Shown piece after piece: positions 40,337-64,000 of a DNA stretch of 64,000 nt. The stretch is from the NCBI GenBank assembly GCA_043824255.1, contig JBDRTG010000007.1, positions 1,641-65,640 on the forward strand. The letters are read 5' to 3'. The position numbers and the translations under genes were made by a program. Under the pieces are notes generated by a model, which saw only the letters and a program-made list of their open reading frames with translations, made no database searches and had not been told where the DNA came from. The DNA is from a bacterium (GTDB lineage: Bacteria; JAHJDO01). Each line of letters starts with the position of its first letter. Positions within the stretch are counted from its first letter, which is position 1.

Positions 40337-40489
40337 ATGGCAAGACCTAATTATCAATATGAAAAACGTATGAAAGATTTGGCAAAAAAGAAAAAGCGGG
40401 AAGAAAAAAAACAACGCAAGCTAGATAAAAAAAATTTAAAGTCCAAAGAGAGCCCGGATCAATCTCGTGATGACGAAGAAAAACAGTAA
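40337..40489 (+). CDS. Small Lys/Glu-rich protein (50 aa), hypothetical
   Basis: MARPNYQYEKRMKDLAKKKKREEKKQRKLDKKNLKSKESPDQSRDDEEKQ. The ATG follows the degT stop immediately and is preceded by AGGAGGA. It overlaps the next gene by 23 nt. Confidence 0.35.
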   Translation: MARPNYQYEKRMKDLAKKKKREEKKQRKLDKKNLKSKESPDQSRDDEEKQ

Positions 40490-41210
40490 CGCAAAAACTG
40501 CTCTGATCATTGGTGGAAGCCGTGGTATAGGACGGGCCATAGCCCTGCGTCTTGCCAGGTCAGGATTTAATATATGGTTGACCTATAAAAGCAACCATGC
40601 TGCTGCTAAGAGGGTAAAAGCAGAGGTAGAGGAAATAGGAATGGCATGTGATACGCTCTCTTTTGACGTTTCCAACTATAATGAGACCGAAGCTGCTCTG
40701 GAGAAAAGGCTGGACGCTCACACTCCCTACATAGTTGTATATAACACAGGCATTACCAGAGACAATCTTTTAGTATGGATGACTAAGGAAGAATGGGATA
40801 CTGTTCTCTCTACAAACCTTGATGGGTTTTACAATGTAATGCACTTTGTTTTATTCCCAATGCTGCGGGAAAAACGGGGGCGCATTGTTGTTGTATCCTC
40901 AGCTTCCGGACAAGTTGGCCGTGCAGGACAGGTAAACTATTCTGCTTCAAAAGCAGGATTAATCGGCGCTGCTAAGGCGTTAGCGCTGGAGGTTGGCAAG
41001 AAGAATATTCTTGTTAATGTTGTTGCTCCGGGTGTGATTGAAACAGATATGATTGAAAATCTTCCTAAAGATAAGATACTTCCGCTTATTCCATTACAGA
41101 GGTTTGGTAATCCGGATGACGTTGCATCGGTAGTGAACTTTTTATGCACAGAAAAGCATATGTATATTCATGGTCAGGTCATTGGTATTAACGGTGGCCT
41201 GGCTCTCTAA
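40467..41210 (+). CDS. 3-oxoacyl-ACP reductase-like SDR (FabG/ApeQ-like ketoreductase)
   Basis: GGSRGIGRAIA, NTGI, SSASG and YSASKAG (catalytic Y-x3-K). Confidence 0.85.
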   Translation: MMTKKNSNAKTALIIGGSRGIGRAIALRLARSGFNIWLTYKSNHAAAKRVKAEVEEIGMACDTLSFDVSNYNETEAALEKRLDAHTPYIVVYNTGITRDNLLVWMTKEEWDTVLSTNLDGFYNVMHFVLFPMLREKRGRIVVVSSASGQVGRAGQVNYSASKAGLIGAAKALALEVGKKNILVNVVAPGVIETDMIENLPKDKILPLIPLQRFGNPDDVASVVNFLCTEKHMYIHGQVIGINGGLAL

Positions 41211-41222
41211 GGTTGTCTCTAT

Positions 41223-42725
41223 ATGAAAAAATATGACGACATAATTGTGGGAAGCGGTGTCAGCGGCCTAACACTTGCGCTTTTACTTGGCATGAACGGG
41301 CATAAAGTGCTGCTTGTTGAAAAAAACGCGCATATCGGAGGATCATTGAGGCGGTTTTATTCTCAAGGCATCCCTTTTGATACCGGATTTCACTTTACAG
41401 GCGGATTCTATAAAGACGGGATTCTTCAGGATATGCTGATGGTTCTTGGTATTAAAGATGATATCCAGCCCATTTATCTATCAGAGGAGAAAAATAACCA
41501 GTTTGTAATTGGCTCGGAAAAGACAACATATAATCTGCCAACTGGTTATCAGAGAACAATAGAAAAGATAAAGGAATACTTTCCCAGCGAAGAACATGCC
41601 ATAGACAAATATTTTACTATGGTCAAAAATGTTTGTAATCAGACTGCTGCCATGGAGTTGCGTAAAATTTCTGTGCCAACAACTCTTTTGGATGAGAATT
41701 TTCTAAGTCTTAATGATGTTCTAAACAAATTGACTGACAATCCTAAGTTGAAAGCGCTACTGGCTGGGTACAGCATGTGTTACGGGGTCAAACCTCAAGA
41801 GATTTCATTTGCCAATCACAGCAGAATCTGTTACAGCCTGTATGAATCCGTTGCCAGAGTAAAGGACGGCGGTGATGCATTTATCAGCGCATTTCAGAAA
41901 CATTTTAAGGAGTTTAATATTGAAATTATGTGCAATAGGTATATTACAGAATGCGTCGATATTCAGAATAATTGCGTGGGACGCTTTGTGCTGAATAGCG
42001 GAGAAGAAATATCTTGTGACCAGTGCATCTTTACAATACATCCCACGGAGGTATTAAAAACTTTGCCTAAGAACCATTTGAGCAAGGCTTTTGTTGATAG
42101 GGTCTCAGCATTTGAATCGTCAGCAGGCTTCTTTTCAGTGTATGGTGTTGTGGAATCTCCTAGCTTAGCAGATGACTTTACCCCAACAATCACCTCTCTA
42201 TTTCCAACAGCGGATATAAACCAGTTGCTTGATCCGGGAAATAGCGCGATGCCGGCTATGGTAATTATGCAGAATGAGGAAGAAGTAAAGGGGAAATCCT
42301 ATCATGTATTGAGCGCGCTTGAAGTATCTTTCCCTGAGCATGTAGAAGCATGGAAGCTTTCAAAGCATGGGAATCGCCCTTCTGACTACCGGAAATATAA
42401 ACAACAACATGTTAGCAGTATCAAAGAGCGTATTATTGAAAAATTCCCGGAGTATAAGGATTCTTTTAAAGTAATAGATTCTGCATCTATCCTGACATTC
42501 AGAGATTATTTGAATTCTCCCGATGGCGCAGCGTATGGTGTGAAACAGAAAATCGGACAGTTTAATCTTTTTGGAAAGCTTCCTCTTCGCAATATATATG
42601 CTGCCGGCCAGAGCTCTATGCTGCCGGGAGTGGTAGGGGCAATGATGTCTTCATTTATTGTTGGAAGAACTATTGTTGGAAAAGGAAAATATAATCATTT
42701 TATTGAGCAGAGATTATGCAGTTAA
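41223..42725 (+). CDS. FAD-dependent oxidoreductase, phytoene-desaturase (CrtI/RetSat) superfamily
   Basis: N-terminal dinucleotide fold DIIVGSGVSGLTLALLLGMNGHKVLLVEKNAHIGG, 500 aa, and C-terminal NIYAAGQS. Confidence 0.75.
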   Translation: MKKYDDIIVGSGVSGLTLALLLGMNGHKVLLVEKNAHIGGSLRRFYSQGIPFDTGFHFTGGFYKDGILQDMLMVLGIKDDIQPIYLSEEKNNQFVIGSEKTTYNLPTGYQRTIEKIKEYFPSEEHAIDKYFTMVKNVCNQTAAMELRKISVPTTLLDENFLSLNDVLNKLTDNPKLKALLAGYSMCYGVKPQEISFANHSRICYSLYESVARVKDGGDAFISAFQKHFKEFNIEIMCNRYITECVDIQNNCVGRFVLNSGEEISCDQCIFTIHPTEVLKTLPKNHLSKAFVDRVSAFESSAGFFSVYGVVESPSLADDFTPTITSLFPTADINQLLDPGNSAMPAMVIMQNEEEVKGKSYHVLSALEVSFPEHVEAWKLSKHGNRPSDYRKYKQQHVSSIKERIIEKFPEYKDSFKVIDSASILTFRDYLNSPDGAAYGVKQKIGQFNLFGKLPLRNIYAAGQSSMLPGVVGAMMSSFIVGRTIVGKGKYNHFIEQRLCS

Positions 42726-43951
42726 AACGGGTAGTAATAACTGGTGTTGGAGCTGTTTCTCCTTTAGGCAATGACGTTCCTGCTCTTACTGCGGGAATTG
42801 AACAAAGGAAAAGCGCTGTTCGTTATATGGAGGATTGGAACCAGTACATTGGCCTGCGCAGTTTAGTTGCAGCACCTGCGGAAGTTAAAAATGAAAAATT
42901 GATACCGCGTCAGAACAGACGATCAATGGGAAGAATGAGTATTTTTGCGGCTCAGGCAGCTCAGCAAGCTCTGTCAGACGCTAATATAGACCGTGAAGCA
43001 TTATCTACAGGAAGGATTGGATGTATTATTGGGTCAACTACAGGAAGCGCTCAAAGCCTCACCGAGACCTTTGAAATTATGATTCCAGCAAAGGATCTAA
43101 CTCAGCTCAATTCAACAAAATTCTTTCAGTGCATTTCCCATACAGCAGCGATGAATGTATCTCAGTATCTGGGAATAACCGGTTGCGTTATGGCAACCTC
43201 TGCCGCGTGCGCATCTGCATTACAAGCTATTGGAGCAGGCTGTGATCTGATCAGGTTAGGCAAACAAGATGCGCTATTATGCGGCGGTGCGGAAGAAATT
43301 CATCCAACTGTTACTGGATCTTTTGATATTCTTTTTGCAACATCAACAAATTATAATCAATCTCCTCATAAAACCCCGCGGCCTTTTGACGTAAAACGGG
43401 ACGGTTTGGTATGTGGAGAAGGAAGCGGGATACTTGTTCTGGAGGAGTATGAAAGGGCTGTAGCAAGAAAGGCGAAAATATACGCTGAAGTTATCGGATA
43501 TCATACATGCGGAAATGGCGCTCATATCAGCCAGTCCAGCAGAGTTGGTATGGTTTCATGCATCAGTAGTGCCTTAAGCAATGCGCATATTGAACCAAAA
43601 GATGTTGATTATATAAATGCTCATGCAACAGCAACGGTGCAGGGCGACAAGGAAGAAGCTCAGGCAATAAAGGAGATATTTGGTGATTGTGTTCCAGTAA
43701 GCAGTTTGAAGGGATATATCGGACATACGCTCGGCGCATCAGGGGCATTGGAACTGATTGCTTCTTTGGCAATGATGGAAAAAGGGTGCATATATCCTAC
43801 TCTAAATCTTGAGACAGTAAGTCCGGATTGCGAGGGCATTTATCATGTAATGAAGCCCTTAAGCAGAGAAATCAAAATTATGGTGAAAAATTGTTTTGCG
43901 TTCGGCGGAATCAACGCAGCGCTGGTGTGCAAAAGAATGACTAATTTATAG
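42716..43951 (+). CDS. Beta-ketoacyl-ACP synthase (FabF/ApeR-like, complete Cys-His-His triad)
   Basis: RVVITGVGAVSPLGN, ATSAACASALQAIG (Cys), INAHATAT (His) and GHTLGASG (His). Confidence 0.9.
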   Translation: MQLKRVVITGVGAVSPLGNDVPALTAGIEQRKSAVRYMEDWNQYIGLRSLVAAPAEVKNEKLIPRQNRRSMGRMSIFAAQAAQQALSDANIDREALSTGRIGCIIGSTTGSAQSLTETFEIMIPAKDLTQLNSTKFFQCISHTAAMNVSQYLGITGCVMATSAACASALQAIGAGCDLIRLGKQDALLCGGAEEIHPTVTGSFDILFATSTNYNQSPHKTPRPFDVKRDGLVCGEGSGILVLEEYERAVARKAKIYAEVIGYHTCGNGAHISQSSRVGMVSCISSALSNAHIEPKDVDYINAHATATVQGDKEEAQAIKEIFGDCVPVSSLKGYIGHTLGASGALELIASLAMMEKGCIYPTLNLETVSPDCEGIYHVMKPLSREIKIMVKNCFAFGGINAALVCKRMTNL

Positions 43952-44075: not shown

Positions 44076-44276
44076 ATGTTGAAGTATAAATTAAATAAAA
44101 AAGTCATTAAAATATCATCTTTGGATGAAAATGACGAAAAGGAATATTGGAGTTCAAAAACAACGACAGACAGATTAAAGGCAGTGGAATTAAATAGGAG
44201 GATAGTATATGGATATGCCAATACTTCCCCAAGATTTCAGAGATTTTTTGAAATTGCTCAACTCAAAAAAAATTGA
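44076..44276 (+). CDS. Small protein, likely partner/antitoxin of the downstream nucleotidyltransferase
   Basis: The 66-aa protein reads ...DENDEKEYWSSKTTTDRLKAVELNRRIVYGY...PRFQRFFEI. I recall this pattern upstream of this nucleotidyltransferase type. It overlaps the next ORF by 68 nt. Confidence 0.4.
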   Translation: MLKYKLNKKVIKISSLDENDEKEYWSSKTTTDRLKAVELNRRIVYGYANTSPRFQRFFEIAQLKKN

Positions 44277-44658
44277 GTATTTGCTGATAGGTGGTTATGC
44301 AGTCGGTTATTATGGGTATCCGCGGGCAACGGCAGATATGGATATATGGATTGCTATTGCTAAAGAGAATGCTAAGAAGATAACAGAAGCAATAAAGGAA
44401 TTCGGCTTAAATGCTCCAGATTTATGCGAGGCTATTTTTCTTAAGCCTGGGAAAATCATCAGGATGGGATATCCTCCAATAAGAATAGAAGTGTTTACGG
44501 AAATATCGGGCGTAAATTTTGAGGAATGTTTTTCCAGACGTACTGAAACCAAAATTGATGGAATAAAAGTTAACCTCATATCGTATGAGGACCTTTTGAA
44601 AAATAAAAAAGCAAGTGGCAGATACAAAGATTTAAATGATTTAGAAAATTTAAAATAG
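44209..44658 (+). CDS. Nucleotidyltransferase-fold protein (minimal NTase, TA-like)
   Basis: FLKLLNSKKIEYLLIGGYAVGYYGYPRATADMDIWIA shows the GG.A...G..R.T.D.D NTase signature. 149 aa. Confidence 0.6.
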   Translation: MDMPILPQDFRDFLKLLNSKKIEYLLIGGYAVGYYGYPRATADMDIWIAIAKENAKKITEAIKEFGLNAPDLCEAIFLKPGKIIRMGYPPIRIEVFTEISGVNFEECFSRRTETKIDGIKVNLISYEDLLKNKKASGRYKDLNDLENLK

Positions 44659-44670: not shown

Positions 44671-44937
44671 ATGGATAAGCAGGAAATTATAGATAAAATA
44701 AATCAGGTATTTGAGGAATCCTTTGAGATCAAGAAAGAAAAACTCTTACCGCAAGCGAATATTTTTGAAGATCTGGGCCTGGACAGTTTAGATGTTGTGG
44801 ACCTGGTTGTTGCCTTACAGCAGAAGTTTGGCATTAAAATACGCGATGACCAACGCCTCAGAAACATCCGAACACTTGAGGATATTTACAAATTTGTTCT
44901 CACTTTAAAAGATGAAGAAAAAAAAGCAGTTAATTAA
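44671..44937 (+). CDS. Acyl carrier protein
   Basis: An 88-aa protein with the phosphopantetheine site EDLGLDSLDVVDLV. Confidence 0.9.
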   Translation: MDKQEIIDKINQVFEESFEIKKEKLLPQANIFEDLGLDSLDVVDLVVALQQKFGIKIRDDQRLRNIRTLEDIYKFVLTLKDEEKKAVN

Positions 44938-44942: not shown

Positions 44943-45695
44943 ATGAAGACCTTAAAGCTGATATATTTTAACATAGTGTTTTATACACTGTTCTTATCGT
45001 TCTCTATATTTAGTATTCCCATTTTAAGTTTATCTGTTATTTTTCTTGGTTTATTTTCATCTCATCGCAACACTATGAAGCGATTTCGCAGAGCAATCAA
45101 TTGGTACGGCAATGTTATTATTCGGGTTCTTCCGTTCCCTTTTGTGCGTTTCAGCTATAAAGATTATGCAAAGAATAAAAGCAGAGGTCCGTATATTTTT
45201 GTTTGTAATCACCGCTCCAGCTCAGATCCATTCTTGATTGGATGTCTTCCCTATGAACTTATTCAAGTTGTGAATACATGGCCATTTCGTCTTCCGGTGC
45301 TGGGGATATTTGCAAGATGGGCGGGTTATTTGAATGTCAAGAGAATGCAGTTCAAGAAATTTTCCTATAAAACAATCGAATTACTCAGACAGGGAGTTTC
45401 CATTGTTGCATTTCCTGAAGGAACACGTTCTGTAAACAAAAAAATCGGACAGTTTCACAGCTCAATCTTTCGCATTGCCTTGCAAGCGCAATGTCCAATT
45501 GTACCTATATGCATTTCAGGAAATGAGAATATCCCTCCACGCGGATCGCTTCTCTTGCATCAGGGAATAATCAGGCTGCACAAATTGCCAGGTCTTGAAT
45601 GGGAACAATACAAGGATTTAGGGCCGTTTAAGCTTAAAAACAAAGTGCGTGATATTATGGCTTCGGAGCTTGCTGCTATGGAGGAGGGGGCATGA
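44943..45695 (+). CDS. Lysophospholipid acyltransferase (PlsC/LPLAT family, ApeD-like)
   Basis: N-terminal TM helix, the H-x4-D motif CNHRSSSDPF, and FPEGTRS. Confidence 0.85.
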   Translation: MKTLKLIYFNIVFYTLFLSFSIFSIPILSLSVIFLGLFSSHRNTMKRFRRAINWYGNVIIRVLPFPFVRFSYKDYAKNKSRGPYIFVCNHRSSSDPFLIGCLPYELIQVVNTWPFRLPVLGIFARWAGYLNVKRMQFKKFSYKTIELLRQGVSIVAFPEGTRSVNKKIGQFHSSIFRIALQAQCPIVPICISGNENIPPRGSLLLHQGIIRLHKLPGLEWEQYKDLGPFKLKNKVRDIMASELAAMEEGA

Positions 45696-46999
45696 GAGAT
45701 TTATATCGTTATCATGATATATCATTTAGTTCCCCGGAAGAAATCAGGGAGATTCAGGAAAGGCAGTTACAGGAGCACATTGCATACTGTATCAAACATT
45801 CTCCTTTTTACAGCAAGTCGCTGAAGAATATCAAAGCTGAATGCAGCAATATAACGATTGATCAGCTATCAAAACTTCCCTTTACTGAGAAGTCTGATAT
45901 TGAGCAAAATAATGACGATTTTTGCGCAGTTACTTCTGATAAGATTGTTGATATTGTTTTATCTTCAGGAACAACAGGCAAACCGATCAGGATGACGTAT
46001 ACTGATTATGATTTAAAGCGGCTTGCCTATAACGAGGAAAGATCGTTTACAGGATGCGGTCTGACTTCTAATGATACGGTGTTATTAACCTGCACAATGG
46101 ATCGCTGTTTCGTTGCAGGCCTGGCGTATTTTCTTGGGATACGCAGTGTTGGCGCAGCAGCTATTAGAAACGGGCATAGCAGCCTTGAGAGTCACCTGCA
46201 GATCATAAAACAAATGAATCCAACAACTCTTATCGGAGTTCCGAGTTTTCTCAGAAAACTGGGTTTATACTTAAAGGAAAACGGAATGAATCCTGATAAA
46301 ACCGCTGTGTCCAAACTGGTTTGTATTGGTGAACCGTTACGTGGAGAAAATCTTGAATTATTAAAAGTAGGAGATGATCTTCATAGCATATGGCAGGCAC
46401 AGGCTTTTTCCACATACGCTTCTTCTGAGATTGTAACTACCTTCTGTGAATGTAGGGCTCAGCAAGGAGGGCATCTTCTTCCTGACCTGGCAGTTGTAGA
46501 GATTATTGATAAAAACGGCACAGTTCTTCCTCCTGGCAATATAGGCGAAATCGTTGTAACGCCAATGGCAGTAGAAGGAATGCCTTTGATACGGTTTAAG
46601 ACAGGTGATGTAAGTTTCCTGATTGATGAGCAATGCTCTTGTGAGCGGTTTTCTCCAAGGCTGGGACCGATTCTGGGGAGAAAAAAACAAATGATGAAAA
46701 TCAAAGGAACGACTCTGTATCCACAGGCAATATATTCTGCCTTAGAAGAGATTGAGACAATAAATGACTATTATGTAACAGTATCCGGAGAAAGCGAACT
46801 TTCAGATATCATAGAAATCAATGTATCAGTTAATGACCCGTCATGCACTGCAGATATGATACAGAATAAACTTCAAGCGTGTCTGAGAGTAAAGCCTGAG
46901 GTAGTAATCGCTGATTCGGAAACCATTAAACAGAAGGTATATGATCCAAAGTCGCGAAAGCCAATTCGCTTTATAGATAGGAGACAAACAAAACAGTGA
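45692..46999 (+). CDS. Adenylate-forming ligase, phenylacetate-CoA ligase (PaaK / F390-synthetase) type
   Basis: LSSGTTGKPIRM, GEIVVTP and about 435 aa. An ATGA overlap joins it to the acyltransferase gene. Confidence 0.8.
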   Translation: MRDLYRYHDISFSSPEEIREIQERQLQEHIAYCIKHSPFYSKSLKNIKAECSNITIDQLSKLPFTEKSDIEQNNDDFCAVTSDKIVDIVLSSGTTGKPIRMTYTDYDLKRLAYNEERSFTGCGLTSNDTVLLTCTMDRCFVAGLAYFLGIRSVGAAAIRNGHSSLESHLQIIKQMNPTTLIGVPSFLRKLGLYLKENGMNPDKTAVSKLVCIGEPLRGENLELLKVGDDLHSIWQAQAFSTYASSEIVTTFCECRAQQGGHLLPDLAVVEIIDKNGTVLPPGNIGEIVVTPMAVEGMPLIRFKTGDVSFLIDEQCSCERFSPRLGPILGRKKQMMKIKGTTLYPQAIYSALEEIETINDYYVTVSGESELSDIIEINVSVNDPSCTADMIQNKLQACLRVKPEVVIADSETIKQKVYDPKSRKPIRFIDRRQTKQ

Positions 47000-48465
47000 G
47001 TTGTCACACCCCAATACCAAATTTCGAATTTGCACGAGAGGAAATAGAAGATGCAGTACGCAATAGCAGGCTTCTATCTGTGGAAATTGAACCCAGTCTG
47101 CGTTGTAATTTCCACTGTCCATATTGTTATATACCGGAGAATTCTTCTCTTGAAAACGAGTTGACCGTAGAGGAAATCTGCGATGTTATTTTACAGGCGC
47201 AGGATCTTGGAGCAAAAAAAATTATTATTCTCGGCGGAGAGCCGATGATATATCCGCATATTATGGAAATAATTAAGTTTATCAGAACGCATCATCTTAA
47301 CGTGGAGATATTTACCAATGGTTCTAATATTACTGCTGATATAGCGAAACAGCTTTTTGACTATGGAGTAAATGTGGTTCTAAAGATGAACACGTTTAAT
47401 GAGCATAATCAGGATATGCTTGCCGGGAAAAAAGGAGCGTTCAAGATCATTCAGGAAGCATTTCACAATCTAAAGCAAGCAAGACGTCCTTCCGGAGAAA
47501 CATTTCTGGCAGTCAGTACCGTCATATGCTCTCAGAATATTGATGAGTTGGTAGATATGTGGCAAAAGCTGAGGGATCAGAATATTATCCCGTATTTTGA
47601 GATGATTACTCCGCAGGGAAATATTAGACAAAACGGATGGTTAAATATTGAACCTCAAAAGATACATGATATTTTTTGTAAAATTGCCGAAATTGACCGT
47701 ACTCACTATGGATACTTCTGGGAGCCTCAGCCTCCTCTGATAGGGAATAGATGTCTGCGGCACCAGTTTTCATGTCTTGTTACTTCTCAAGGATATGTTA
47801 CGCCGTGTGTTGGGGTAACTATACCGGTTGGAAGCATACGAAAGCAAAAGCTTCGAGATATTATAAAAGATAGTGAGGTTATTCAGGATCTTAGAAATTA
47901 TCATGATACAATGAAGGCTCCTTGCCGTGAATGCGAAAAATCAAACGAATGTTACGGATGCCGCGGAGCAGCATACCAGCTGACAGGCGATTATCTGGCT
48001 TCTGACCCTATGTGCTGGAAGAATGTTGATAAACAGGATAAAATTGCCTGTTTACCGATTGCAGTTGAAGAACTAATTCCGCAGAAATCGCCAATGCGAG
48101 TCATTGATACACTGATGAAAGTTGCTGAGCGCACAGCAGATGTAACCGTAACATTATCACAGGATATGCTATTTATTGACGAAAGCGGTTTGCTTGATGA
48201 GGCTGCGTATCTTGAAATGATCGCGCAGGCAATAGCAGCGCTGAGCGGATTTAAACATATGGGTGCGTCTAAACCGGCGCCGGGAGGATTCCTGCTTGGA
48301 GCGAAAAAACTTGAGATATTAGGCAAAGCGCATGTTGGAGACACATTAAATATATCATTCTATAAATATGCAAGGTACGGCGGTTTTGGCATTGTTAAAG
48401 GAACCGTATCACAGGACAACCATGTGCTCGCCAGAGGAGAGGTAAAGATCTGGCATGAGACATGA
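46996..48465 (+). CDS. Fusion protein: radical SAM + SPASM-like domain / C-terminal hotdog dehydratase (ApeI/FabZ-like)
   Basis: The rSAM cluster is SLRCNFHCPYCY, with GGEP. Cys-rich SPASM-like segments are CLRHQFSCLV..C and CRECEKSNECYGCRG. From about residue 350 comes a hotdog domain (LIPQKSPMRVIDTL...YLEMIAQAIAAL...GGFLLGAKKLEILG...VGDTL). A GTGA overlap joins it to the ligase gene. Confidence 0.8.
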   Translation: MSCHTPIPNFEFAREEIEDAVRNSRLLSVEIEPSLRCNFHCPYCYIPENSSLENELTVEEICDVILQAQDLGAKKIIILGGEPMIYPHIMEIIKFIRTHHLNVEIFTNGSNITADIAKQLFDYGVNVVLKMNTFNEHNQDMLAGKKGAFKIIQEAFHNLKQARRPSGETFLAVSTVICSQNIDELVDMWQKLRDQNIIPYFEMITPQGNIRQNGWLNIEPQKIHDIFCKIAEIDRTHYGYFWEPQPPLIGNRCLRHQFSCLVTSQGYVTPCVGVTIPVGSIRKQKLRDIIKDSEVIQDLRNYHDTMKAPCRECEKSNECYGCRGAAYQLTGDYLASDPMCWKNVDKQDKIACLPIAVEELIPQKSPMRVIDTLMKVAERTADVTVTLSQDMLFIDESGLLDEAAYLEMIAQAIAALSGFKHMGASKPAPGGFLLGAKKLEILGKAHVGDTLNISFYKYARYGGFGIVKGTVSQDNHVLARGEVKIWHET

Positions 48466-48773
48466 ATAAAATGGTTTTTCTTTACATTACCAATGAATCA
48501 GCCAAAGAGGCAAAAAAAATTGCCAGGCATTTGCTTGAAAAACGTATGATTGGCTGTGCGAATATTTTCCCAGTCAGTGCTATGTATTGGTGGAAAGGCA
48601 AAATTGCCGATGAAACGGAGGTTGTGCTTATTGCTAAAACAACGAAGGAGAATTATCAAAAAGTTCGGGATGAAATTGCCAGAATCCATCCTTTTGACAC
48701 TCCTTGCATAATCAAGCTGGACGCTGATCCCAATGAAAAATATTTGCAATGGATCAAAAGTGAACTCAAATAG
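48462..48773 (+). CDS. cutA: CutA divalent-cation tolerance protein
   Basis: A 103-aa protein with VFLYITNES...AKKIARHLLEKRMIGCANIFP..AMYWWKGKI...EVVLIAKT. An ATGA overlap joins it to the preceding gene. Confidence 0.85.
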   Translation: MNKMVFLYITNESAKEAKKIARHLLEKRMIGCANIFPVSAMYWWKGKIADETEVVLIAKTTKENYQKVRDEIARIHPFDTPCIIKLDADPNEKYLQWIKSELK

Positions 48774-55947: not shown

Positions 55948-55977
55948 GTTGTCATTTAGGTTGTCATTTAGTATAAT
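55948..55977 (+). promoter_or_regulatory. Near-consensus sigma70 promoter overlapped by a perfect 12-nt tandem repeat; would give leaderless fic mRNA
   Basis: TTGTCA (55949-55954), a 17-nt spacer, then TATAAT (55972-55977). GTTGTCATTTAG occurs twice in tandem (55948-55959 and 55960-55971). The fic ATG at 55984 is 6 nt after the -10 box, with no SD. Confidence 0.6.
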
Positions 55978-57051: not shown

Positions 57052-58299
57052 ATGAAAATAAAACTAATATATCCCACATGGCCGAAACTAATGGATCAGA
57101 CGGAATTTAATTTGCCGCCTCATGGTCCGGCGTGTTTTGCTGCGGCGCTGAGTGATGATATTGAAATCTCTTTTTGTGATGAAAATGTTGAGAAACTTGA
57201 TTTTTCTGAAGATGCAGACTTGATTGTGCTCTCAGTTATGCTGACATGCCAGATGCCCCGCGCATGGGAAATTAGCGATTGGTATCGAGCTCATGGTAAG
57301 AAGGTGGTGTTTGGCGGCATTGCAACAATGCTTCATGCGGAAGAGACAATGTCTCACGCTGATAGTGTTTTTTTAGGAGAGGCTGAAGGCAGGATTGATA
57401 AGGTTATTGATGATTTTAAGAAAGGACGTATGGAAAAGATGTATGATTTTTTCCATGATTTTCCGGATATGAACATAATTGGCACTGCAAGACGCAGCAT
57501 TCTTAAGCGTGAATTATATAATTTCCGCGGTGTGCAGATGGTTGATCTGATACATGCGTCCCGAGGGTGCAAGTTTAATTGTTTTCCGTGCTGCACGCCG
57601 TATTTGGGAGGGCGCAAATTCAGGCCGCGCCCTGTTGATGCAGTGGTGAGGGAGCTGGAAAGCATTGACAATAACCGCATGTTTTTTGTTGATAATTCTA
57701 TGGCGCAGAACGATGAATGGGAGAGAGAACTGTTTAAGGCAATTGCTCCGTTAAAAAAGAAATGGATATCTCATCCCATAAAGGATGATGACGAAATATT
57801 GGATCTAGCCGCTAAAGCAGGATGTTGGTATGTATATCAGGCAATAATAGATACCTCAGATCATATCCGCAGAAGAGTCAAGCGGCTGCAGGAACATGGC
57901 ATTGGAGTTGAAGGGACAGTTATTCTCGGATTGGATTATCATGATGAAGATTATATAAAGCGATTAGTTGATTTTCTTCTTGAGATAAATCTTGACCTTG
58001 CCGAATTTACTATCCTTACTCCATTTCCTCATGCACCGATCAGAGCCCAGCTGGAAAAAGAAAATAGGATCCTTCATAACAACTGGATCCAGTACACAAC
58101 AGGAGAGGTTGTATTTAAACCGGCAAAAATGACTATAAACTCATTGCAAAGCATGTACCACTATGCATGGGAAAAATTTTACTCTGACTGCAGCAGGGAA
58201 ATAAAGATGGCAAAACTGTTTCTTAAAGTTATTGAAAAAGAAAAGAAGGACGGAACCTATAAGAGAGCCAGGTTAAGGGCTGGTCGCGCGTGGTCATGA
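57052..58299 (+). CDS. B12-binding-domain radical SAM enzyme (class B)
   Basis: N-terminal Rossmann-like B12 domain (DLIVLSVMLT...VVFGGIATM), followed by the rSAM cluster ASRGCKFNCFPC. Confidence 0.85.
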   Translation: MKIKLIYPTWPKLMDQTEFNLPPHGPACFAAALSDDIEISFCDENVEKLDFSEDADLIVLSVMLTCQMPRAWEISDWYRAHGKKVVFGGIATMLHAEETMSHADSVFLGEAEGRIDKVIDDFKKGRMEKMYDFFHDFPDMNIIGTARRSILKRELYNFRGVQMVDLIHASRGCKFNCFPCCTPYLGGRKFRPRPVDAVVRELESIDNNRMFFVDNSMAQNDEWERELFKAIAPLKKKWISHPIKDDDEILDLAAKAGCWYVYQAIIDTSDHIRRRVKRLQEHGIGVEGTVILGLDYHDEDYIKRLVDFLLEINLDLAEFTILTPFPHAPIRAQLEKENRILHNNWIQYTTGEVVFKPAKMTINSLQSMYHYAWEKFYSDCSREIKMAKLFLKVIEKEKKDGTYKRARLRAGRAWS

Positions 58300-59648
58300 G
58301 AATTCTGCTGATTGCTTCTAATACTGCCAGTACTCCATGTCCTATATATCCGTTAGGGGTGAGCATGATTGCAGCAGCTTTGCGTAACGGCGGACATGAG
58401 GTATGTCAGTTTGATTTTCTTCAGAGCAATAAGTCCATGGATGCGCTTTGTGAGACAATCAGGAACAATGCTCCAAATATTATCGGTGTATCAATTCGCA
58501 ATATTGATAATGTGAACTACTTAAGTGAACAGCGCTATATTGATGTTGCGAAGGATATTGTACAAACGATTCACGCACAAACCAGCGTGCCAGTAGTGCT
58601 TGGCGGCGCAGGATTTTCTATTATGCCGGAAGCAATCCTGCGTGAGGTTGGTGCTGATTATGGAATTGTTGGAGAAGGAGAGGCACTAATGCTTGAATTT
58701 GTTGCAAATGCTGAGAAAGGGGAGTATCCCAAAAAACGTTGTATACGGGCTATATCTAAGCTGAGTGGGGAAAAAATCCCCTCTGCATATTATGATCCAA
58801 AGATTATGGAGTTTTATCTGAAAAGAGGGAACATTGGATCTGTGCAGACAAAGCGGGGATGTACACATAAATGCGTGTACTGCTCGTATCCTATTTTGGA
58901 AGGCACAAGTATTCGCTGCAGGGATCCGAAGGCAGTGGTTGATGATATTCAGATGCTGACTGATACGCACAAGGCAAAATATATCTTCTTTACTGATTCG
59001 GTTTTTAATGATGACCAAAAACATTATCTGAACGTAGTTCGTGAAATGGCAAAAAGAGGGGTGTCTATCCCTTGGACTGCGTTTTTCAAACCGGAAAAGC
59101 TTGATGATGAAATTATAGCGCTGATGAAACAGACCGGGCTGAAAGCAGCAGAGCTTGGATCTGATGCGCCGGCTAATACAACACTTCGCAAGCTTGGCAA
59201 GTCATTCTTATTTAAGGACATTATTGAGTGTAATGACTCCTTTGTCCGCTCTGGTATTGCCACGGCGCATTATTATATGTTTGGTTGTCCGGGGGAGACA
59301 CGGGAAACAGTGCTTGAGGGAATAGAAAATATCAAAAGTCTGAGAAAGGCAGTATCTTTTATCTTTATGGGGATACGGATTCTTCCTGGTACTGGTCTTG
59401 AGCACATAGCGCTTAAAGAAGGGCTTCTTTCCAATGGTCAGGATTTACTGAAGTCTGTTTATTATATTTCTCCAAACATTGATAAACAGTGGCTAAAGGA
59501 GACATTAACTAAAGCATTCTCCGGCATTAAACATTGTATTTTCCCTCCTGATGCAGGGGACACTACTTTACAGTTTCTTCACAAACTTGGATATTCAGGC
59601 TCTATGTGGGATATGCTTATTGCCGGGAATAAAAAACTAGATGAGTAA
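58296..59648 (+). CDS. B12-binding-domain radical SAM enzyme (class B), second paralogue
   Basis: MRILLIASN...PLGVSMIAAALRNGGHEV...IIGVSIRN...VVLGGAGFS, then TKRGCTHKCVYCSYP. I took ATG 58296, which forms an ATGA overlap. Confidence 0.85.
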   Translation: MRILLIASNTASTPCPIYPLGVSMIAAALRNGGHEVCQFDFLQSNKSMDALCETIRNNAPNIIGVSIRNIDNVNYLSEQRYIDVAKDIVQTIHAQTSVPVVLGGAGFSIMPEAILREVGADYGIVGEGEALMLEFVANAEKGEYPKKRCIRAISKLSGEKIPSAYYDPKIMEFYLKRGNIGSVQTKRGCTHKCVYCSYPILEGTSIRCRDPKAVVDDIQMLTDTHKAKYIFFTDSVFNDDQKHYLNVVREMAKRGVSIPWTAFFKPEKLDDEIIALMKQTGLKAAELGSDAPANTTLRKLGKSFLFKDIIECNDSFVRSGIATAHYYMFGCPGETRETVLEGIENIKSLRKAVSFIFMGIRILPGTGLEHIALKEGLLSNGQDLLKSVYYISPNIDKQWLKETLTKAFSGIKHCIFPPDAGDTTLQFLHKLGYSGSMWDMLIAGNKKLDE

Positions 59649-60810
59649 TAATTCTTTCTCTACAGATCATATCTGGTGTGTCATCCCTGTATTTAATAAC
59701 AAGGATACTGTGAAAAATGTTGCTTTATCCTGCAGAGCTTATTTGCAGCATATACTTGTTGTTGATGACGGCAGTACTGATATTAATGTATCTGCTTTAT
59801 TTGTTGACACTGATATTATTGTGCTCAGGCACGAGAAAAATCTTGGAAAAGGCAAGGCAATTCTTACTGCCCTAAAGTATATTAAAGCTCAAGGCGGGCG
59901 CTTTATGATTACAATTGATGCAGACGGACAGCACTATCCGCAGGATTTGGAGAAGTTCATTCCTTTGCTCCAGAAAGATGAAACAAGTATTGTTATTGGG
60001 TGCAGAAAACTTCATGGGAAACATGTTCCCCGTAAGAGTCATTTTGGAAGAAAGATTGCTAATTTCTGGCTGCGTGTAGAAACAGGTGTTTCAATTGATG
60101 ATTGCCAGAGCGGGTTTCGCGCATATCCAGTGCAGTACCTTTTACAAATGAAGTTAACAGGCTCTCATTATGATTTTGAAACCGAAGTTCTGGCAAGGGC
60201 AGTCTGGGCTGGCTTGCGTCTAAAGACAATTGAGATTGATGCATGGTATCCTGAACCTCAATTTCGCATCTCCAGCTTTAAGCCACTTGTGGACAATATG
60301 CGTATTTCCTGTATGCATACCAGATTAGTAGGCAGGTGCCTTTTACCGCTTCCGCACCGGAAACTGGTTCATGAAGCTGCGAAAAAAATAGACCTGAGCA
60401 TACTGCGTCATCCTGTTAAATTACTGAAGATGCTGCTAAAAGAGAATGCAAATCCAGTTGGGTTAGCTATAGCAGCAGGTGTGGGAATCTTTCTTGCTGT
60501 ATTGCCGCTTATCTCAATTCATACATTGGCAATTATTTATGTGACAGCGCGCTTGCATTTAAATAAAGTGATGGCTGTAACCATACAGCATTTATGCATA
60601 CCGCCTCTTGTTCCGGCAGTCTGCATTGAACTGGGGTATTATATGCGGCATGGTCACTGGTTAACAGAGGTTTCCATGGATGTTATTTTTAAGCAATTCC
60701 CCGACAGATTGTTTGAATGGCTGCTCGGCTCACTTATAGTTGCGCCTGTATTGGCAATCATTATAGGAACAAGTGTATTTTTTACAGCAAAGGCATTACA
60801 GAAAAACTGA
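59641..60810 (+). CDS. Family-2 glycosyltransferase fused to a C-terminal DUF2062-like membrane domain
   Basis: VIPVFNNKDTV...VVDDGSTD...ITIDADGQH, followed by 3-4 TM helices (GLAIAAGVGIFLAVLPL...). Confidence 0.8.
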   Translation: MSNNSFSTDHIWCVIPVFNNKDTVKNVALSCRAYLQHILVVDDGSTDINVSALFVDTDIIVLRHEKNLGKGKAILTALKYIKAQGGRFMITIDADGQHYPQDLEKFIPLLQKDETSIVIGCRKLHGKHVPRKSHFGRKIANFWLRVETGVSIDDCQSGFRAYPVQYLLQMKLTGSHYDFETEVLARAVWAGLRLKTIEIDAWYPEPQFRISSFKPLVDNMRISCMHTRLVGRCLLPLPHRKLVHEAAKKIDLSILRHPVKLLKMLLKENANPVGLAIAAGVGIFLAVLPLISIHTLAIIYVTARLHLNKVMAVTIQHLCIPPLVPAVCIELGYYMRHGHWLTEVSMDVIFKQFPDRLFEWLLGSLIVAPVLAIIIGTSVFFTAKALQKN

Positions 60811-62382
60811 ACCATTTATGACGTCTTTCAGTTCATCGTAAGCCGCTATTTTCATGTCTTTCATGACAATGAGACTGGCATTCGCACCGGCCTTTACAGC
60901 CATTGGAACGCCCCCGCCATATTCCGCACAATGACCTCCCAACAATAAATTCTTCACAGGCGTTTTGTAATGTGCTACACCGGCTCTGATATTTCTTCCA
61001 GTTGGTTTAACCCCTGAAATGCTTCCCTTGGTGTTGCCCGTATATCGCCAATATGTTACAGGTGTTGCAATCTCCATCACCTCTATGTGCTCCCTCAGCC
61101 CGGGAGCGAAAGTTTTCTCAATCCGGTCCAGCAGGATGTCGGCAAACTTTCTTTTCAATGCTTTGTAGGTTTCGCCTCTTGCCAGACCCTCGCCGGTTCT
61201 CCAATTGTCTTCGTAATCGAGATATGCCGGACAATGTATCATAACGGTTCCCTTACCTTCCGGTGCCAGAGAAGGATCACGAACTGAAGGCGCGATGACG
61301 ATCATGATCGTGCGATGTGGATCACCACTCATGTGATCTTCACGTGATACATCGCTCCTGGTGAGATTCAATACTTCTTCTCCGAACCCCAAAGAAGAAG
61401 CATCGCAATCCAGTCCCAGAAATATGGTGAAGCTGGAATGATAAATATCGGCATTATGCAGTGCTTTTCGCATCCGTGCCGGAATGCAGCCCTCCAGCAG
61501 CATCTTTTCATAAAGCATCTGTACGTCGCAGGCTGCAATCACGTATCGAGCGCTCAGGGAACTTCCGTCTGCCAGTAATACACCGGTCGCTTCTTTTCTG
61601 TCGTTCAACAGCACTCTTTCCACGTGCTGGTTCAGCAATACTTTCGACCCGGCAGACCTGATTCTGTCACACAACCATAAAGCCAGTGTGCGACTTCCTC
61701 CTTTGGGACAAGTTTGAAAATTTCCGGCGAATGCCCAAGCGATAGGCACAATAACGGACATAAAGGATTCTTGACTGCAGAATATCTTTTGAGCACCCTC
61801 CGTACTGAAATAGCGGCGCAGCCCTTTCTCGACAGGGCTCCTCACGTGTTTGAAGACAGGAATTGCCCAAAACAGCATTTGCAAGCTGCGAATAGCTCTT
61901 TCAAAGAATGGCATGGTCTCTTTCGCCATTGTCCTGCTGTTCAGAACATTCAGCCGCCGACCCAGTCTTTCCCCATCCTTGAAAAAAGATCTGATACCGC
62001 TCTCATCATCAGGAAAGTCCTTGATAAGACAATCCTGTAACTCGATAGGATTGGAACTCAGCAAATAGTCGAACGAATCGCTTTTATATCTGTGTATGCG
62101 AGTCAACGGCGCGCAGGTTGGAAACTCGCCACCCAGATAACGCCAGATGTTGTAGACGAATCCGCTGGGACCGCATTGATTGAGCCATTGGATGGAAGTG
62201 TCGAACTGAAAGCCCTGCCGCTGAAAACCTGCCAGGTATCCCCCTGGCTGCGGCTGAGTTTCAAGAACTACTGTTTGAAGACCCGCCCTTGAGAGAAGCC
62301 CTGCTGCGGTGAGTCCACCTGCCCCTGCCCCGATGACTACAACATCACACCTGTCAGGGACTTGATTATTCGCCTGTATCAT
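60796..62382 (-). CDS. FAD-dependent oxidoreductase, phytoene-desaturase (CrtI) superfamily; compositionally atypical
   Basis: DVVVIGAGAGGLTAAGLLSRAGLQTVVLETQPQPGG and C-terminal LLLGGHCAEYGGG. Spot GC on four lines is 50-57%. Seven spurious ORFs of 60 aa or more overlap it in other frames. Confidence 0.8.
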   Translation of the reverse strand: MIQANNQVPDRCDVVVIGAGAGGLTAAGLLSRAGLQTVVLETQPQPGGYLAGFQRQGFQFDTSIQWLNQCGPSGFVYNIWRYLGGEFPTCAPLTRIHRYKSDSFDYLLSSNPIELQDCLIKDFPDDESGIRSFFKDGERLGRRLNVLNSRTMAKETMPFFERAIRSLQMLFWAIPVFKHVRSPVEKGLRRYFSTEGAQKIFCSQESFMSVIVPIAWAFAGNFQTCPKGGSRTLALWLCDRIRSAGSKVLLNQHVERVLLNDRKEATGVLLADGSSLSARYVIAACDVQMLYEKMLLEGCIPARMRKALHNADIYHSSFTIFLGLDCDASSLGFGEEVLNLTRSDVSREDHMSGDPHRTIMIVIAPSVRDPSLAPEGKGTVMIHCPAYLDYEDNWRTGEGLARGETYKALKRKFADILLDRIEKTFAPGLREHIEVMEIATPVTYWRYTGNTKGSISGVKPTGRNIRAGVAHYKTPVKNLLLGGHCAEYGGGVPMAVKAGANASLIVMKDMKIAAYDELKDVINGSVFL

Positions 62383-62475
62383 CTTCTGCTTTTATAATAA
62401 AATTAGATATTACTCTAAAGAAAAGCTTCAACAATATCAAGTTAAAATAAGCGAACTACTTTGTTTATTTCCTAT

Positions 62476-62513
62476 TTGAACCAACCTGGTTCTTTTGAAC
62501 CAACTTGGTTCTT
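62476..62513. promoter_or_regulatory. Tandem pair of 19-bp palindromic sites (candidate operator) in a divergent intergenic region
   Basis: TTGAACCAACCTGGTTCTT (62476-62494) and TTGAACCAACTTGGTTCTT (62495-62513). Each contains GAACCA-N3-TGGTTC. Confidence 0.5.
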
Positions 62514-62554
62514 ATGCAATTGAAAAGAGAAAAATAATCTGTTAAGATTTCTAT

Positions 62555-63493
62555 GTGAAAAAAGCTGAAGCATCTCGAAAAATTGAAGCAAAGAGAAGAG
62601 GGAATGCCCTTGGATTCTGGTTTTTTAGGATTTCTCTGCGCTTTTTTGGGTTAAGAGGAGCGTATGGATTATTATATATTGTCTGTATCTACTATGTGCT
62701 GTTTGATCGAGCAGCTGTTTGTGGAGCTTTGGCGTATATTAACAGAAGGTTTCCATCACATGGTTTTGTAAAAAGGCTGAGACACGCATATAGATTGTTT
62801 GTAAGTCAGGGAAGACAGCTTATTGACCGCTATGCTATTGTTTCAGGACAGGAAATATTTGATATCCAGTTACGCGGATATGAACAATTGATGTCCCTGA
62901 TTCAGAATTCTCCTCATGGAATAATTTTGCTAACTGCTCATGTGGGTAACTGGCAGGTCGCTATGACAGCATTAAAAAAACTGGGGAAAACAGTGTATCT
63001 GGTTATGCGTCCGGAAGATAACCCTGCGGTGCAAAGTTCACTGCGTATCAGCAGGGAACAGGACTATATCAAGATTATTTCTCCTGAACAAGAACTCGGT
63101 GGAATTGTTGAAATCATGAATAGATTAAAAGAAAAACATATTGTGTCCATTATGGGCGACCGTAGATATGGGTTTAAAGCTGTAGAAGTTTCGTTTCTTG
63201 GAGAGAAAGCCTGGTTTCCATACGGCGGCTTTACAATTGCGGCAGCGACAAGATGTCCGGTAGTTATTCTGTTGTCAGAGAAAGTCTCTACTTATAAGTA
63301 CATTGTTGATGTATCTAATGTGTTGTATCCGTGCTATGAGAATGGGACGAATAAATATCAGCAGCTCCAGCAATGGGTTCAGGAATTTGCTGCGTTGCTT
63401 GAAGAATATACACACAAACACCCTTACCAGTATTTTTTGTTTTCTAATGTGTGGGAAGAAGAAACAGAAAGCACAGGTAAAATGAAGACATGA
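62555..63493 (+). CDS. LpxL/HtrB-family (lipid A late) acyltransferase-like protein
   Basis: N-terminal membrane helices and LLTAHVGNWQVAM (family motif H-x-G-N-W-E as I recall it, here with Q), 312 aa, GTG start. Confidence 0.7.
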   Translation: MKKAEASRKIEAKRRGNALGFWFFRISLRFFGLRGAYGLLYIVCIYYVLFDRAAVCGALAYINRRFPSHGFVKRLRHAYRLFVSQGRQLIDRYAIVSGQEIFDIQLRGYEQLMSLIQNSPHGIILLTAHVGNWQVAMTALKKLGKTVYLVMRPEDNPAVQSSLRISREQDYIKIISPEQELGGIVEIMNRLKEKHIVSIMGDRRYGFKAVEVSFLGEKAWFPYGGFTIAAATRCPVVILLSEKVSTYKYIVDVSNVLYPCYENGTNKYQQLQQWVQEFAALLEEYTHKHPYQYFLFSNVWEEETESTGKMKT

Positions 63494-64000
63494 AATTAAT
63501 CTGTTTAATACTGCTGTTCACAGTTGTTGCAATTAACGTTGCCTTTGCCGATGCGGATCAGACCGATGAGCCATGGATGTTGATGACCGGCTACAGCACC
63601 ACGCATCCGGGACTCGGCAAAACTCGTGAACATGTTGAGACAGTGGATGTAATTCTGCGATATAGGCGAAAACTCAAAGATACTGGACGTGACTGGTACC
63701 GCGGGAGTCATAACTTCCTGATAGAACTACCTGTGTCTTATCTTATTAATTCTGATGACGGCCAGATTTTTGGCTTGAACTTTCTTTCATCCTGGACGCT
63801 GAAGACATCGCAAAGATACATGCCATATTTCTTTGTGGGCGGCGGTCCTGTCTATACGGAAGCGAACATACCCGGCATGGGCGCCAATATCTGCGGGAAC
63901 TATCAAGCGGGACTAGGGCTTAGTTACAAGACAAGAAAGGGCCGTTCATTTGTATTAGAATATAGATTTCATCACATATCCAACGCTGGCATGAAACAAC
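63490..64000 (+). CDS. PagL-like lipid A deacylase / acyloxyacyl hydrolase beta-barrel, 3' end cut by window edge
   Basis: This ORF is not in the ORF track because it runs off the edge. ATG 63490 forms an ATGA overlap. It has a signal peptide MKLICLILLFTVVAINVAFA, beta-barrel-like strands and RFHHISNAG (the PagL His-x-Ser motif). A spot count gives about 60% GC. Confidence 0.6.
   Translation, partial: MKLICLILLFTVVAINVAFADADQTDEPWMLMTGYSTTHPGLGKTREHVETVDVILRYRRKLKDTGRDWYRGSHNFLIELPVSYLINSDDGQIFGLNFLSSWTLKTSQRYMPYFFVGGGPVYTEANIPGMGANICGNYQAGLGLSYKTRKGRSFVLEYRFHHISNAGMKQ

Follow-up and report, generated by a model that had tools for sequence, protein, structure and literature searches.

The window analysed here is a stretch of 64,000 nucleotides from a bacterium of the GTDB lineage JAHJDO01 (assembly GCA_043824255.1, contig JBDRTG010000007.1, positions 1,641 to 65,640 of the forward strand), and our subject is the gene cluster at its right-hand end (40467–64000). 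The table of open reading frames (ORFs) and Pfam scans place all genes of this region on the plus strand, with the exception of one CrtI-like gene. The region is in all likelihood one operon-like biosynthetic cluster of the aryl polyene (APE) family of type II polyketide synthase/fatty acid synthase (FAS)-like systems. To the APE set of genes it adds a SPASM-type radical S-adenosylmethionine (SAM) enzyme fused to an ApeP-like subunit, two B12-domain radical SAM enzymes (B12a and B12b), and a CrtI-family flavoenzyme. The genes are as follows.

40467–41210, plus strand: ketoreductase (KR), an ApeQ/FlxB/FabG-like short-chain dehydrogenase/reductase and first gene of the cluster (Pfam adh_short_C2 1.2e-49, KR 8e-19)
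41223–42725, plus strand: CrtI-family flavoenzyme 1 (CrtI1), a conserved member (Pfam NAD_binding_8, Amino_oxidase)
42716–43951, plus strand: ketosynthase 1 (KS1), ApeR-type (FabB-like) homodimeric ketosynthase (PDB 7F27 1.1e-104, 4EWG 1.5e-100)
44209–44658, plus strand: DUF2204 nucleotidyltransferase, strain-specific insertion (Pfam DUF2204 9e-6)
44671–44937, plus strand: acyl carrier protein (ACP; Pfam PP-binding 7e-12; NCBIfam NF003757 69.9 bits, cutoff 65)
44943–45695, plus strand: PlsC/LPLAT-type acyltransferase, candidate for an ApeD-like role (Pfam Acyltransferase 2e-24)
45692–46999, plus strand: PaaK/FlxY-type adenylating ligase (Pfam AMP-binding, AMP-binding_C_2)
46996–48465, plus strand: radical SAM-SPASM enzyme fused to an ApeP-like C-terminal hotdog domain (Pfam Radical_SAM, SPASM; homologues carry PF22817, ApeP-like)
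48462–48773, plus strand: CutA1, lineage-specific passenger (Pfam CutA1 1e-31)
48858–49508, plus strand: LolA-like periplasmic carrier, ApeL-like (Pfam LolA 9e-16)
49474–51921, plus strand: MMPL/RND (HAE3-like) exporter, ApeM-like (Pfam MMPL 8e-7)
51984–52652, plus strand: lipoprotein, weakly DUF3261-like, ApeN-like (DUF3261 E 0.0025, below cutoff)
52649–53026, plus strand: ApeI-like hotdog protein (Pfam FabA 1.4e-7; ApeI-like 28.1 bits, cutoff 28.5)
53157–53528, plus strand: 123-aa membrane protein, strain-specific insertion
53634–54176, plus strand: C39-like peptidase, strain-specific insertion (Pfam Peptidase_C39_2 8e-16)
54204–55352, plus strand: ketosynthase 2 (KS2), catalytic member of a putative ketosynthase/chain-length-factor (CLF) pair (Pfam ketoacyl-synt, Ketoacyl-synt_C)
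55349–55900, plus strand: half-size (183-aa) Cys-less ketosynthase-like protein, CLF-like partner of KS2 (4-nt overlap with KS2; no Pfam or NCBIfam hit)
55984–57039, plus strand: Fic/DOC protein with winged helix-turn-helix, strain-specific insertion (Pfam Fic 3e-20, HTH_24)
57052–58299, plus strand: B12-domain radical SAM enzyme a (Pfam B12-binding 33 bits, Radical_SAM 32 bits)
58296–59648 (ORF from 58290), plus strand: B12-binding radical SAM enzyme b, TIGR04072 member (NCBIfam TIGR04072 634.6 bits, cutoff 360)
59641–60810, plus strand: GT2 glycosyltransferase-DUF2062 protein, candidate for an ApeJ-like role (Pfam Glycos_transf_2 7e-23, DUF2062 1e-9)
60796–62382, minus strand: CrtI-family flavoenzyme 2 (CrtI2; Pfam Amino_oxidase 1e-22)
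62555–63493, plus strand: LpxL/HtrB-family acyltransferase, a conserved member (Pfam Lip_A_acyltrans 6e-18)
63490–64000, plus strand: PagL-like outer-membrane protein, gene truncated at the window end (Pfam PagL 5e-12)

The original prediction, drawn from the sequence alone, had described a lipid cluster from 40337 onward. Every gene it listed is found where it said, by ORF and Pfam match, essentially on one strand; it had passed over four operon genes (DUF2204, the 123-aa membrane protein, the C39-like peptidase, and the Fic protein with its helix-turn-helix). Ten gene junctions overlap within the cluster. The at least seven 4-nt overlaps claimed earlier hold if B12b starts at ATG 58296, a Met that is invariant in relatives and that we adopted as the start: six junctions overlap by 4 nt without it, and another three by 8–35 nt. 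The left border has to be moved to the KR gene at 40467, because a close relative (L001, a contig of GCA_030652805.1 with proteins 89–96% identical to those of the window) keeps the core order but has other genes upstream. The right border lies just after PagL, since in the nearest long relative (L088, 83–91% identity) the LpxL-PagL pair is followed by a type II secretion-type ATPase. The cluster thus ends about 56 nt past the window; the full PagL gene, present in an identical short contig, encodes 188 aa. Among the ORFs scanned, there was no enoyl reductase, thioesterase, class-I methyltransferase, or tyrosine ammonia-lyase (TAL), in agreement with the gaps noted earlier. The cluster contains no Rfam match. 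Promoter-like and terminator-like sites are no more frequent than in shuffled sequences (62 vs 55.4±6.9 and 19 vs 14.3±3.6, respectively) and are thus uninformative.

The radical SAM enzymes and CrtI1 are integral to this cluster. An alignment of the radical SAM-hotdog fusion, run against the species representatives of GTDB, matched at least 365 loci, and one of B12b matched at least 560 in JGI metagenome contigs. Protein searches returned 1834 proteins for the fusion and 5972 for B12a. We compared gene order by tblastn of the window proteins against the matched loci and restricted the counts to loci with enough flanking DNA. The order KR, CrtI1, KS1, ACP, PlsC, ligase, fusion, LolA, MMPL, lipoprotein, followed by ApeI, KS2, CLF, B12a, B12b, GT2-DUF2062, LpxL-like, is the same in at least eight phyla. 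The metagenome-assembled genomes (MAGs) carrying it are labelled Omnitrophota, Nitrospirota/Thermodesulfovibrionia, Planctomycetia, Brocadiia, Verrucomicrobiota, Lentisphaerota, Hydrogenedentota, and Deltaproteobacteria (Desulfobacterota). B12a and B12b are present in 22 of 27 fusion-anchored loci with at least 9.5 kb downstream; conversely, 22 of 25 B12b-anchored loci with at least 9.9 kb upstream contain the fusion. KR and CrtI1 occur in 22 of the 31 fusion-anchored loci that extend at least 7 kb upstream. GT2-DUF2062 and the LpxL-like gene occur in 32 of the 36 B12b-anchored loci with at least 3.5 kb downstream, the latter mostly directly after the former. Since gene order including them recurs across so many phyla, the three radical SAM genes and CrtI1 belong to the cluster. 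Their co-occurrence with the core had been named beforehand as a check, and the genes passed it.

Other parts of the inventory do not share this conservation. CrtI2 and PagL, which the original prediction had counted among the late cluster genes, each occur in 1 of the same 36 loci and were rejected as conserved members; PagL lies upstream of KR in two other loci (L016 and L018). CutA1, likewise listed as a cluster part, is seen only in the near relatives L001 and L002. What lies between GT2-DUF2062 and the LpxL-like gene varies from locus to locus; in the window it is the minus-strand CrtI2. At the corresponding position L088 carries four unrelated minus-strand hydrolase genes (12574–17319; beta-lactamase-like, esterase, trypsin-like, and M28 peptidase), and because of these unrelated genes we assign CrtI2 as an insertion at this junction. 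Three further insertions interrupt the otherwise tightly coupled operon and are absent from relatives that are 83–96% identical. The DUF2204 gene is missing from L001, where ACP directly follows KS1, and from the other loci. In L088 and L001, KS2 directly follows ApeI, with neither the membrane protein nor the C39-like peptidase between them, and B12a directly follows CLF without an intervening Fic gene. The Fic gene comes with a strong promoter-like site of its own (55949–55977). The DUF2204, membrane protein/C39-like, and Fic insertions look like passengers of the addiction or defence type.

The core genes are those of an APE-like assembly line. KS1 matches 7F27, the Acinetobacter enzyme AbApeR, and 4EWG, the Paraburkholderia ApeR homologue PpApeR (PMC8358021), and is assigned as an ApeR orthologue. 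Its Cys-His-His motifs are kept in 28 relatives. Tyr135, Phe202, and Phe118, whose aromatic side chains line the cavity of AbApeR, align with Phe in KS1, of which F136 is invariant in the same 28 relatives; this lends weak support to a planar or aryl substrate. KS2 also conserves the Cys-His-His motifs, so that the cluster has the two ketosynthases of an APE system, one of them of the FabB-like ApeR type. The closest PDB match of KS2 is 9s5h_B (2e-53 over the full length), which is probably the anammox amxFabF2 chain. FabF (~1e-48), chain 7f28_B of the AbApeO complex (4e-35), and XdApeO (6qsp_A, 4e-27) follow. The half-size partner, translationally coupled to KS2, shows faint similarity to the N-terminal half of ketosynthases and is kept in 23 of 27 loci. 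A decarboxylase-type CLF was considered for it and dropped, since 29 relatives do not conserve the Gln that the window protein has in place of the ketosynthase Cys. KR reaches the NCBIfam model FabG NF004200 with 300 bits (cutoff 273), and its gene is the first of the conserved order. The ACP is the single PP-binding ORF of the cluster and of the window; other lineages of the subfamily carry two or three ACPs.

The two hotdog domains appear to be the halves of one enzyme. In the ApeI-like protein, the His of the GHFP motif does not vary among 26 relatives, and the EAxAQ position lacks a Glu. The fusion's hotdog domain has an invariant Glu and Gln (E407/Q411) in an EMIAQ motif, and its predicted fold is closest to 6qsr_B, chain B of the Xenorhabdus ApeI:P complex. 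Given these complementary residues and the fold match, we assign the ApeI-like protein as the His-bearing half and the fusion hotdog as the Glu-bearing half of a split dehydratase of the heterodimeric ApeI:ApeP type. The radical SAM part of the fusion contains an invariant CxxxCxxC motif and eight further invariant Cys, which together make a full SPASM domain. The AlphaFold2 model (mean confidence score pLDDT 84.6) resembles SkfB, PqqE, SuiB, and anSME.

Of all proteins in the cluster, B12a is the best conserved: in 82 loci its identity is 58–92%, and 34% of its alignment columns do not vary across phyla. It matches no NCBIfam model above cutoff. B12b belongs to TIGR04072, which NCBIfam names "lipid biosynthesis B12-binding/radical SAM protein". 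BzaD (205 bits) and the TsrM-type tryptophan 2-C-methyltransferase (150 bits) are the models that follow, and its best solved relative is TsrM (PDB 6wte, 2.5e-36). CrtI1 overlaps KS1 by 10 nt. Its scores for the NCBIfam models of CrtD, carotenoid isomerase, and CrtI are all far under the cutoffs, and the enzyme may be a desaturase, an isomerase, or a saturase.

Among the export genes, the LolA-like carrier and the MMPL exporter are present in 27 of 27 loci and the lipoprotein, which has an N-terminal signal sequence with Cys, in 26 of 27; the PlsC-type acyltransferase is syntenic in 26 of 31. The best exporter models of NCBIfam, HAE3 (5e-26) and HpnN (6e-25), both stay under cutoff.

How does this set compare to known systems? 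The closest likeness is to the APE clusters (apeA-R) of E. coli CFT073, Xenorhabdus doucetiae, and Acinetobacter baumannii. Common to both are the ApeR-type ketosynthase (1e-104 to 7F27), a ketosynthase with a short Cys-less partner (in the window, a putative CLF), KR, a split ApeI/ApeP-type dehydratase without enoyl reductase, an adenylating ligase beside ACP, a PlsC-type acyltransferase, GT2-DUF2062, and LolA-like/MMPL/DUF3261-like export. Grammbitter 2020 defined ape clusters by a list of core genes and modelled the roles of ApeD, ApeJ, ApeL, ApeM, and ApeN; the window carries this list except for the second ACP. The KR, RND/MMPL, LolA-like, and DUF3261 genes of an APE cluster are present, the DUF3261 match being weak. 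The APE vocabulary that the original prediction had recognised is therefore real, as seen in the ApeR orthologue, the split dehydratase, and the LolA-MMPL-DUF3261 export set. The differences are one ACP instead of two (ApeE and ApeF), the lack of the ApeB methyltransferase, the ApeK thioesterase, and the ApeG (COG4648) membrane protein, and a KS2 and CLF that are distant from ApeO and ApeC. The flexirubin clusters of Bacteroidota provide the best or near-best NCBIfam names for the ligase (FlxY, 6.6e-140), KR (FlxB), and the LolA-like carrier (LolA2_flexi), with scores that remain under the equivalog cutoffs (467/520, 292/340, and 113/125 bits, respectively). No flexirubin DarA/DarB or TAL was found among the scanned ORFs, and these radical SAM enzymes are not known from flexirubin clusters.

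A second comparison leads to anammox bacteria. We compared by BLASTP the Kuenenia proteins of Javidpour 2016 (Table S6, which gives ~400 aa of each) with the window proteins. kuste3343 is 45% identical to the radical SAM-SPASM part of the fusion and has no hotdog domain; kuste3342 is 32% identical to B12b; kuste3608 and kuste2803 are 30% (2.5e-50) and 27% identical to B12a. The homology of all three radical SAM enzymes to anammox candidate clusters, which had been suspected from gene content, is thus confirmed. The corresponding link through phytoene-desaturase homologues stands in part: such homologues are indeed clustered with FAS-like genes, but CrtI1 and CrtI2 are no closer to kuste3336 and kuste3607 (22–28%) than to Pantoea CrtI (20–25%), which does not qualify them as orthologues. 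The window further combines a TIGR04072 enzyme with FAS-like genes beside radical SAM and phytoene-desaturase homologues, the features by which ladderane-type clusters are recognised. We regard these links as family-level homology and not as evidence for ladderanes, because the cluster is common in non-anammox phyla and ladderanes are tied to anammox genera (PMC9902471).

Two Kuenenia regions are relevant in this respect. kuste3335–3352, put to the test by Javidpour 2016, and the syntenic clusters of Desulfotalea, Geobacter, and Pelobacter share with the window a glycosyltransferase, a phytoene-desaturase homologue, FabG, ACP, a B12-domain radical SAM enzyme, a SPASM radical SAM enzyme, a phenylacetyl-CoA-type ligase, and a ketosynthase with a non-canonical ketosynthase. 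In Kuenenia the SPASM enzyme is not fused to a hotdog domain, and no LolA, MMPL, or lipoprotein genes are listed. This region has additional SAM methylases, a second ACP/ketosynthase set, and a polysaccharide deacetylase, which occur in loci L104 and L164 and not in the window. The second region, Cluster I (kuste3603–3608), is the current prime candidate for ladderane biosynthesis (Dietl 2023; Granatino 2026 preprint) and has been reported to be unique to ladderane producers. Cluster I shares with the window the block order dehydratase, ketosynthase, inactive ketosynthase partner, and B12-domain radical SAM enzyme. The anammox partner is full length (~410 aa) versus 183 aa in the window, and a phytoene-dehydrogenase homologue sits between the partner and the radical SAM enzyme; sequence identity to the window is low. 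A ketosynthase, an inactive partner, and a B12a-type radical SAM enzyme occur together three times: in the window, in kuste3605–3606–(3607)–3608, and in kuste2803–2804–2805.

The subfamily also varies among its carriers. Many other lineages have a second module after the LpxL-like gene, composed of ACP, ketosynthase, ketosynthase-like protein, ACP, and a 430–460-aa protein (L104 13462–20563; L164 14681–21257); no such module was found in the window. The module of L104 and L164 resembles kuste3346–3351. It sometimes includes a HemN-like radical SAM enzyme and a polysaccharide deacetylase as well; a HemN-like enzyme in a lipid cluster recalls the Jaw5 cyclopropanase. Desulfosarcina sp. BuS5 has the second module and a 4HBT thioesterase between ApeI and the ketosynthase. 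A second architecture is found in L041–L081 (Desulfobacterota) and L079 (Allochromatium palmeri), with the order GT2, LpxL-like, ketosynthase, PlsC, B12-type radical SAM, radical SAM, CrtI-like. Its SPASM enzyme has no hotdog domain, and matches to the fusion end near residue 343. This architecture is probably the Desulfotalea-type cluster of Rattray 2009.

The cluster as such belongs to a known, though uncharacterised, kind that is widespread in anaerobes. Rattray 2009 (PMC2649909) described, from Kuenenia and, in synteny, from Desulfotalea, Geobacter, and Pelobacter, FAS-like clusters that combine SAM radical enzymes and phytoene-dehydrogenase homologues with a phenylacetyl-CoA ligase and a glycosyltransferase. 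The ladderane class of antiSMASH was added on this basis, and expressed "ladderane" clusters with unknown function were later reported from Omnitrophota and eight other lineages (Geller-McGrath et al. 2023, PMC9902471). TIGR04072 is moreover a curated family, and the claim of a novel system is not supported. Our literature search found no paper on TIGR04072 or its product name, no paper discussing the radical SAM-dehydratase fusion, and no relevant characterised APE-plus-radical-SAM cluster. The functional logic of the original prediction was otherwise largely right; apart from novelty, it erred in treating three genes as conserved parts.

Which product could such a cluster make? The reading that we favour, with a probability of about 0.6, is an ACP-built conjugated (aryl-)polyene acyl lipid that is tailored without oxygen and exported to the outer membrane. 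Our confidence is high for the identity of the cluster and moderate to low for the model at the level of the product. The steps are modelled on characterised APE systems, and what we observe here is gene content. The FlxY/PaaK-type ligase would adenylate a carboxylic acid starter, most likely an aromatic one, and is presumed, by analogy to ApeH, to load it onto the single ACP. KS1 and the KS2/CLF heterodimer would extend the chain with malonyl units, KR would reduce each beta-keto group, and the split dehydratase would form the double bonds with His from ApeI and Glu from the fusion hotdog. Because there is no enoyl reductase, a conjugated polyene would grow on the ACP. The SPASM enzyme is covalently tied to a dehydratase half, and for this reason its substrates are probably intermediates still held by the ACP, while the chain is being elongated or directly afterwards. 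BzaD and TsrM methylate aromatic sp2 carbons. From this kinship, together with the absence of an ApeB-type methyltransferase from the cluster, B12b most likely uses cobalamin to C-methylate an sp2 or aryl carbon of the head group or polyene, in place of the ApeB-type enzyme of aerobes. B12a, tied to KS2/CLF, and CrtI1, tied to KR and KS1, may provide further oxygen-independent tailoring. The PlsC-type and LpxL-type acyltransferases and GT2-DUF2062 would join the chain to a lipid anchor based on glycerol or sugar, and MMPL, the LolA-like carrier, and the lipoprotein would carry the product to the outer membrane.

Several observations weigh against this assignment. Starter specificity is not established: the FlxY match is under cutoff, and the cluster contains no gene for aryl-acid supply. 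The cluster has a single ACP in place of the two of APE clusters. KS2 resembles FabF and 9s5h_B more closely than ApeO, and the CLF-like partner has no detectable sequence similarity to the ApeC chains in PDB. The proposal that B12b replaces ApeB is only a guess, because Kuenenia has both a B12b homologue and class-I SAM methylases. Even the use of cobalamin by B12a is uncertain, since the best fold match of its moderate model (pLDDT 71.5) is AprD4 (TM-score 0.67), ahead of MgmA and TsrM, and AprD4 is a dehydratase that is not known to use cobalamin. In the literature we found no product for any member of the subfamily, and the Kuenenia homologues, when expressed heterologously, yielded no new lipid (PMC4790861).

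Some of these points suit a non-aromatic product. It is possible that the ligase activates an aliphatic acid and that the CrtI-like and radical SAM enzymes set unsaturation or branching without oxygen. The lipid would then carry a modified fatty acyl or polyene chain that is conjugated, branched, or saturated in part, comparable to the conjugated C26:5 acyl of APE systems. The sub-cutoff FlxY match, the missing aryl-acid supply, the FabF-like KS2, and the single ACP would all fit. APE clusters themselves also make such a non-aryl conjugated chain, and Rattray 2009 proposed anaerobic polyunsaturated-fatty-acid-like chemistry for clusters of this kind. We consider this reading less likely, because KS1 is a very close ApeR orthologue that keeps the aromatic cavity residues, and the ligase belongs to the PaaK/FlxY type for aromatic acids. 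Desulfotalea, moreover, owes its polyunsaturated hydrocarbons to Pfa/Ole genes. Mere adjacency of an APE-like core with unrelated radical SAM and CrtI genes would fit the poorly conserved CrtI2, PagL, and CutA and the DUF2204, C39-like, and Fic insertions. For the three radical SAM enzymes and CrtI1 it is ruled out by the synteny counts: they keep their position relative to the core across phyla, one is physically fused to a dehydratase subunit, and the junctions overlap by 4–10 nt. As an account of the whole cluster, accident is hardly credible.

Returning to chemistry, ladderanes or other cyclobutane-containing lipids as made by anammox bacteria deserve consideration, since all three radical SAM families are common to the Kuenenia candidate clusters, B12b falls into TIGR04072, and the dehydratase-KS-CLF-B12a block mirrors kuste3604–3605–3606–(3607)–3608. 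The identity of the Kuenenia radical SAM enzymes to the window proteins (27–45%), however, is far from that of cross-phylum B12a orthologues (58–92%), and the CrtI-like proteins are not orthologues of kuste3336 and kuste3607. The cluster is carried by many non-anammox phyla, whereas ladderanes are strictly associated with anammox genera (PMC9902471), and the NusA of the host is at most 49% identical to that of any named lineage. We therefore consider ladderanes a very unlikely product. The (aryl-)polyene lipid remains the reading that we prefer.

The window is chromosomal backbone, with genes for Rho, NusA, IF-2, RecJ, trigger factor, and an Rnf subunit as well as for three tRNAs and 6S RNA. 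The RNA genes are:

22952–23119, minus strand: 6S RNA (Rfam 61.3 bits)
26610–26859, minus strand: tRNA-Gly/Leu/Lys trio

NusA has 88–93% matches to metagenome proteins only, before identity falls to 49% or less for named lineages, while the cluster proteins are 60–80% identical to proteins from Desulfobacterota, Omnitrophota, and Nitrospirota MAGs. This contrast, seen also in the 58–92% identity of B12a across phyla, suggests horizontal spread of the cluster, very strong constraint, or both. The Rnf gene and the host taxa of the relatives favour an anaerobic setting. Upstream of the cluster (39104–40336), a DegT-type aminotransferase frame opens 4 nt past an aldolase stop and has no ATG, GTG, or TTG before 39536, which implies that the gene starts at a non-canonical codon (perhaps ATT at 39110), contains a sequencing error, or is decaying. 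Envelope glycosylation genes lie farther upstream (4424–6352 and 34530–37993) and encode a Dpy19-like membrane protein, an O-antigen-ligase domain-TPR fusion, and a PMT_2 glycosyltransferase.

A more speculative proposal, which we consider improbable, concerns the block that recurs in the window, in kuste3605–3608, and in kuste2803–2805. KS/CLF and a B12a-type radical SAM enzyme could form an ancient, horizontally spread unit that makes C–C bonds, and thereby rings, on ACP-bound polyenes, with which the dehydratase-tethered SPASM enzyme would cooperate. If this were true, ladderane-related lipids with carbocyclic acyl chains would be made by many anaerobic phyla, and the pathway of anammox bacteria would represent a specialised branch, open to study in cultured sulfate reducers. 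The subfamily is in any case very common and carries three radical SAM families implicated in ladderane biosynthesis. Its cultured carriers, Desulfosarcina sp. BuS5 (with B12a and B12b) and Desulfatitalea alkaliphila M08but and Allochromatium palmeri DSM 15591 (with unfused variants), could be tractable systems for working out what these radical SAM enzymes do.

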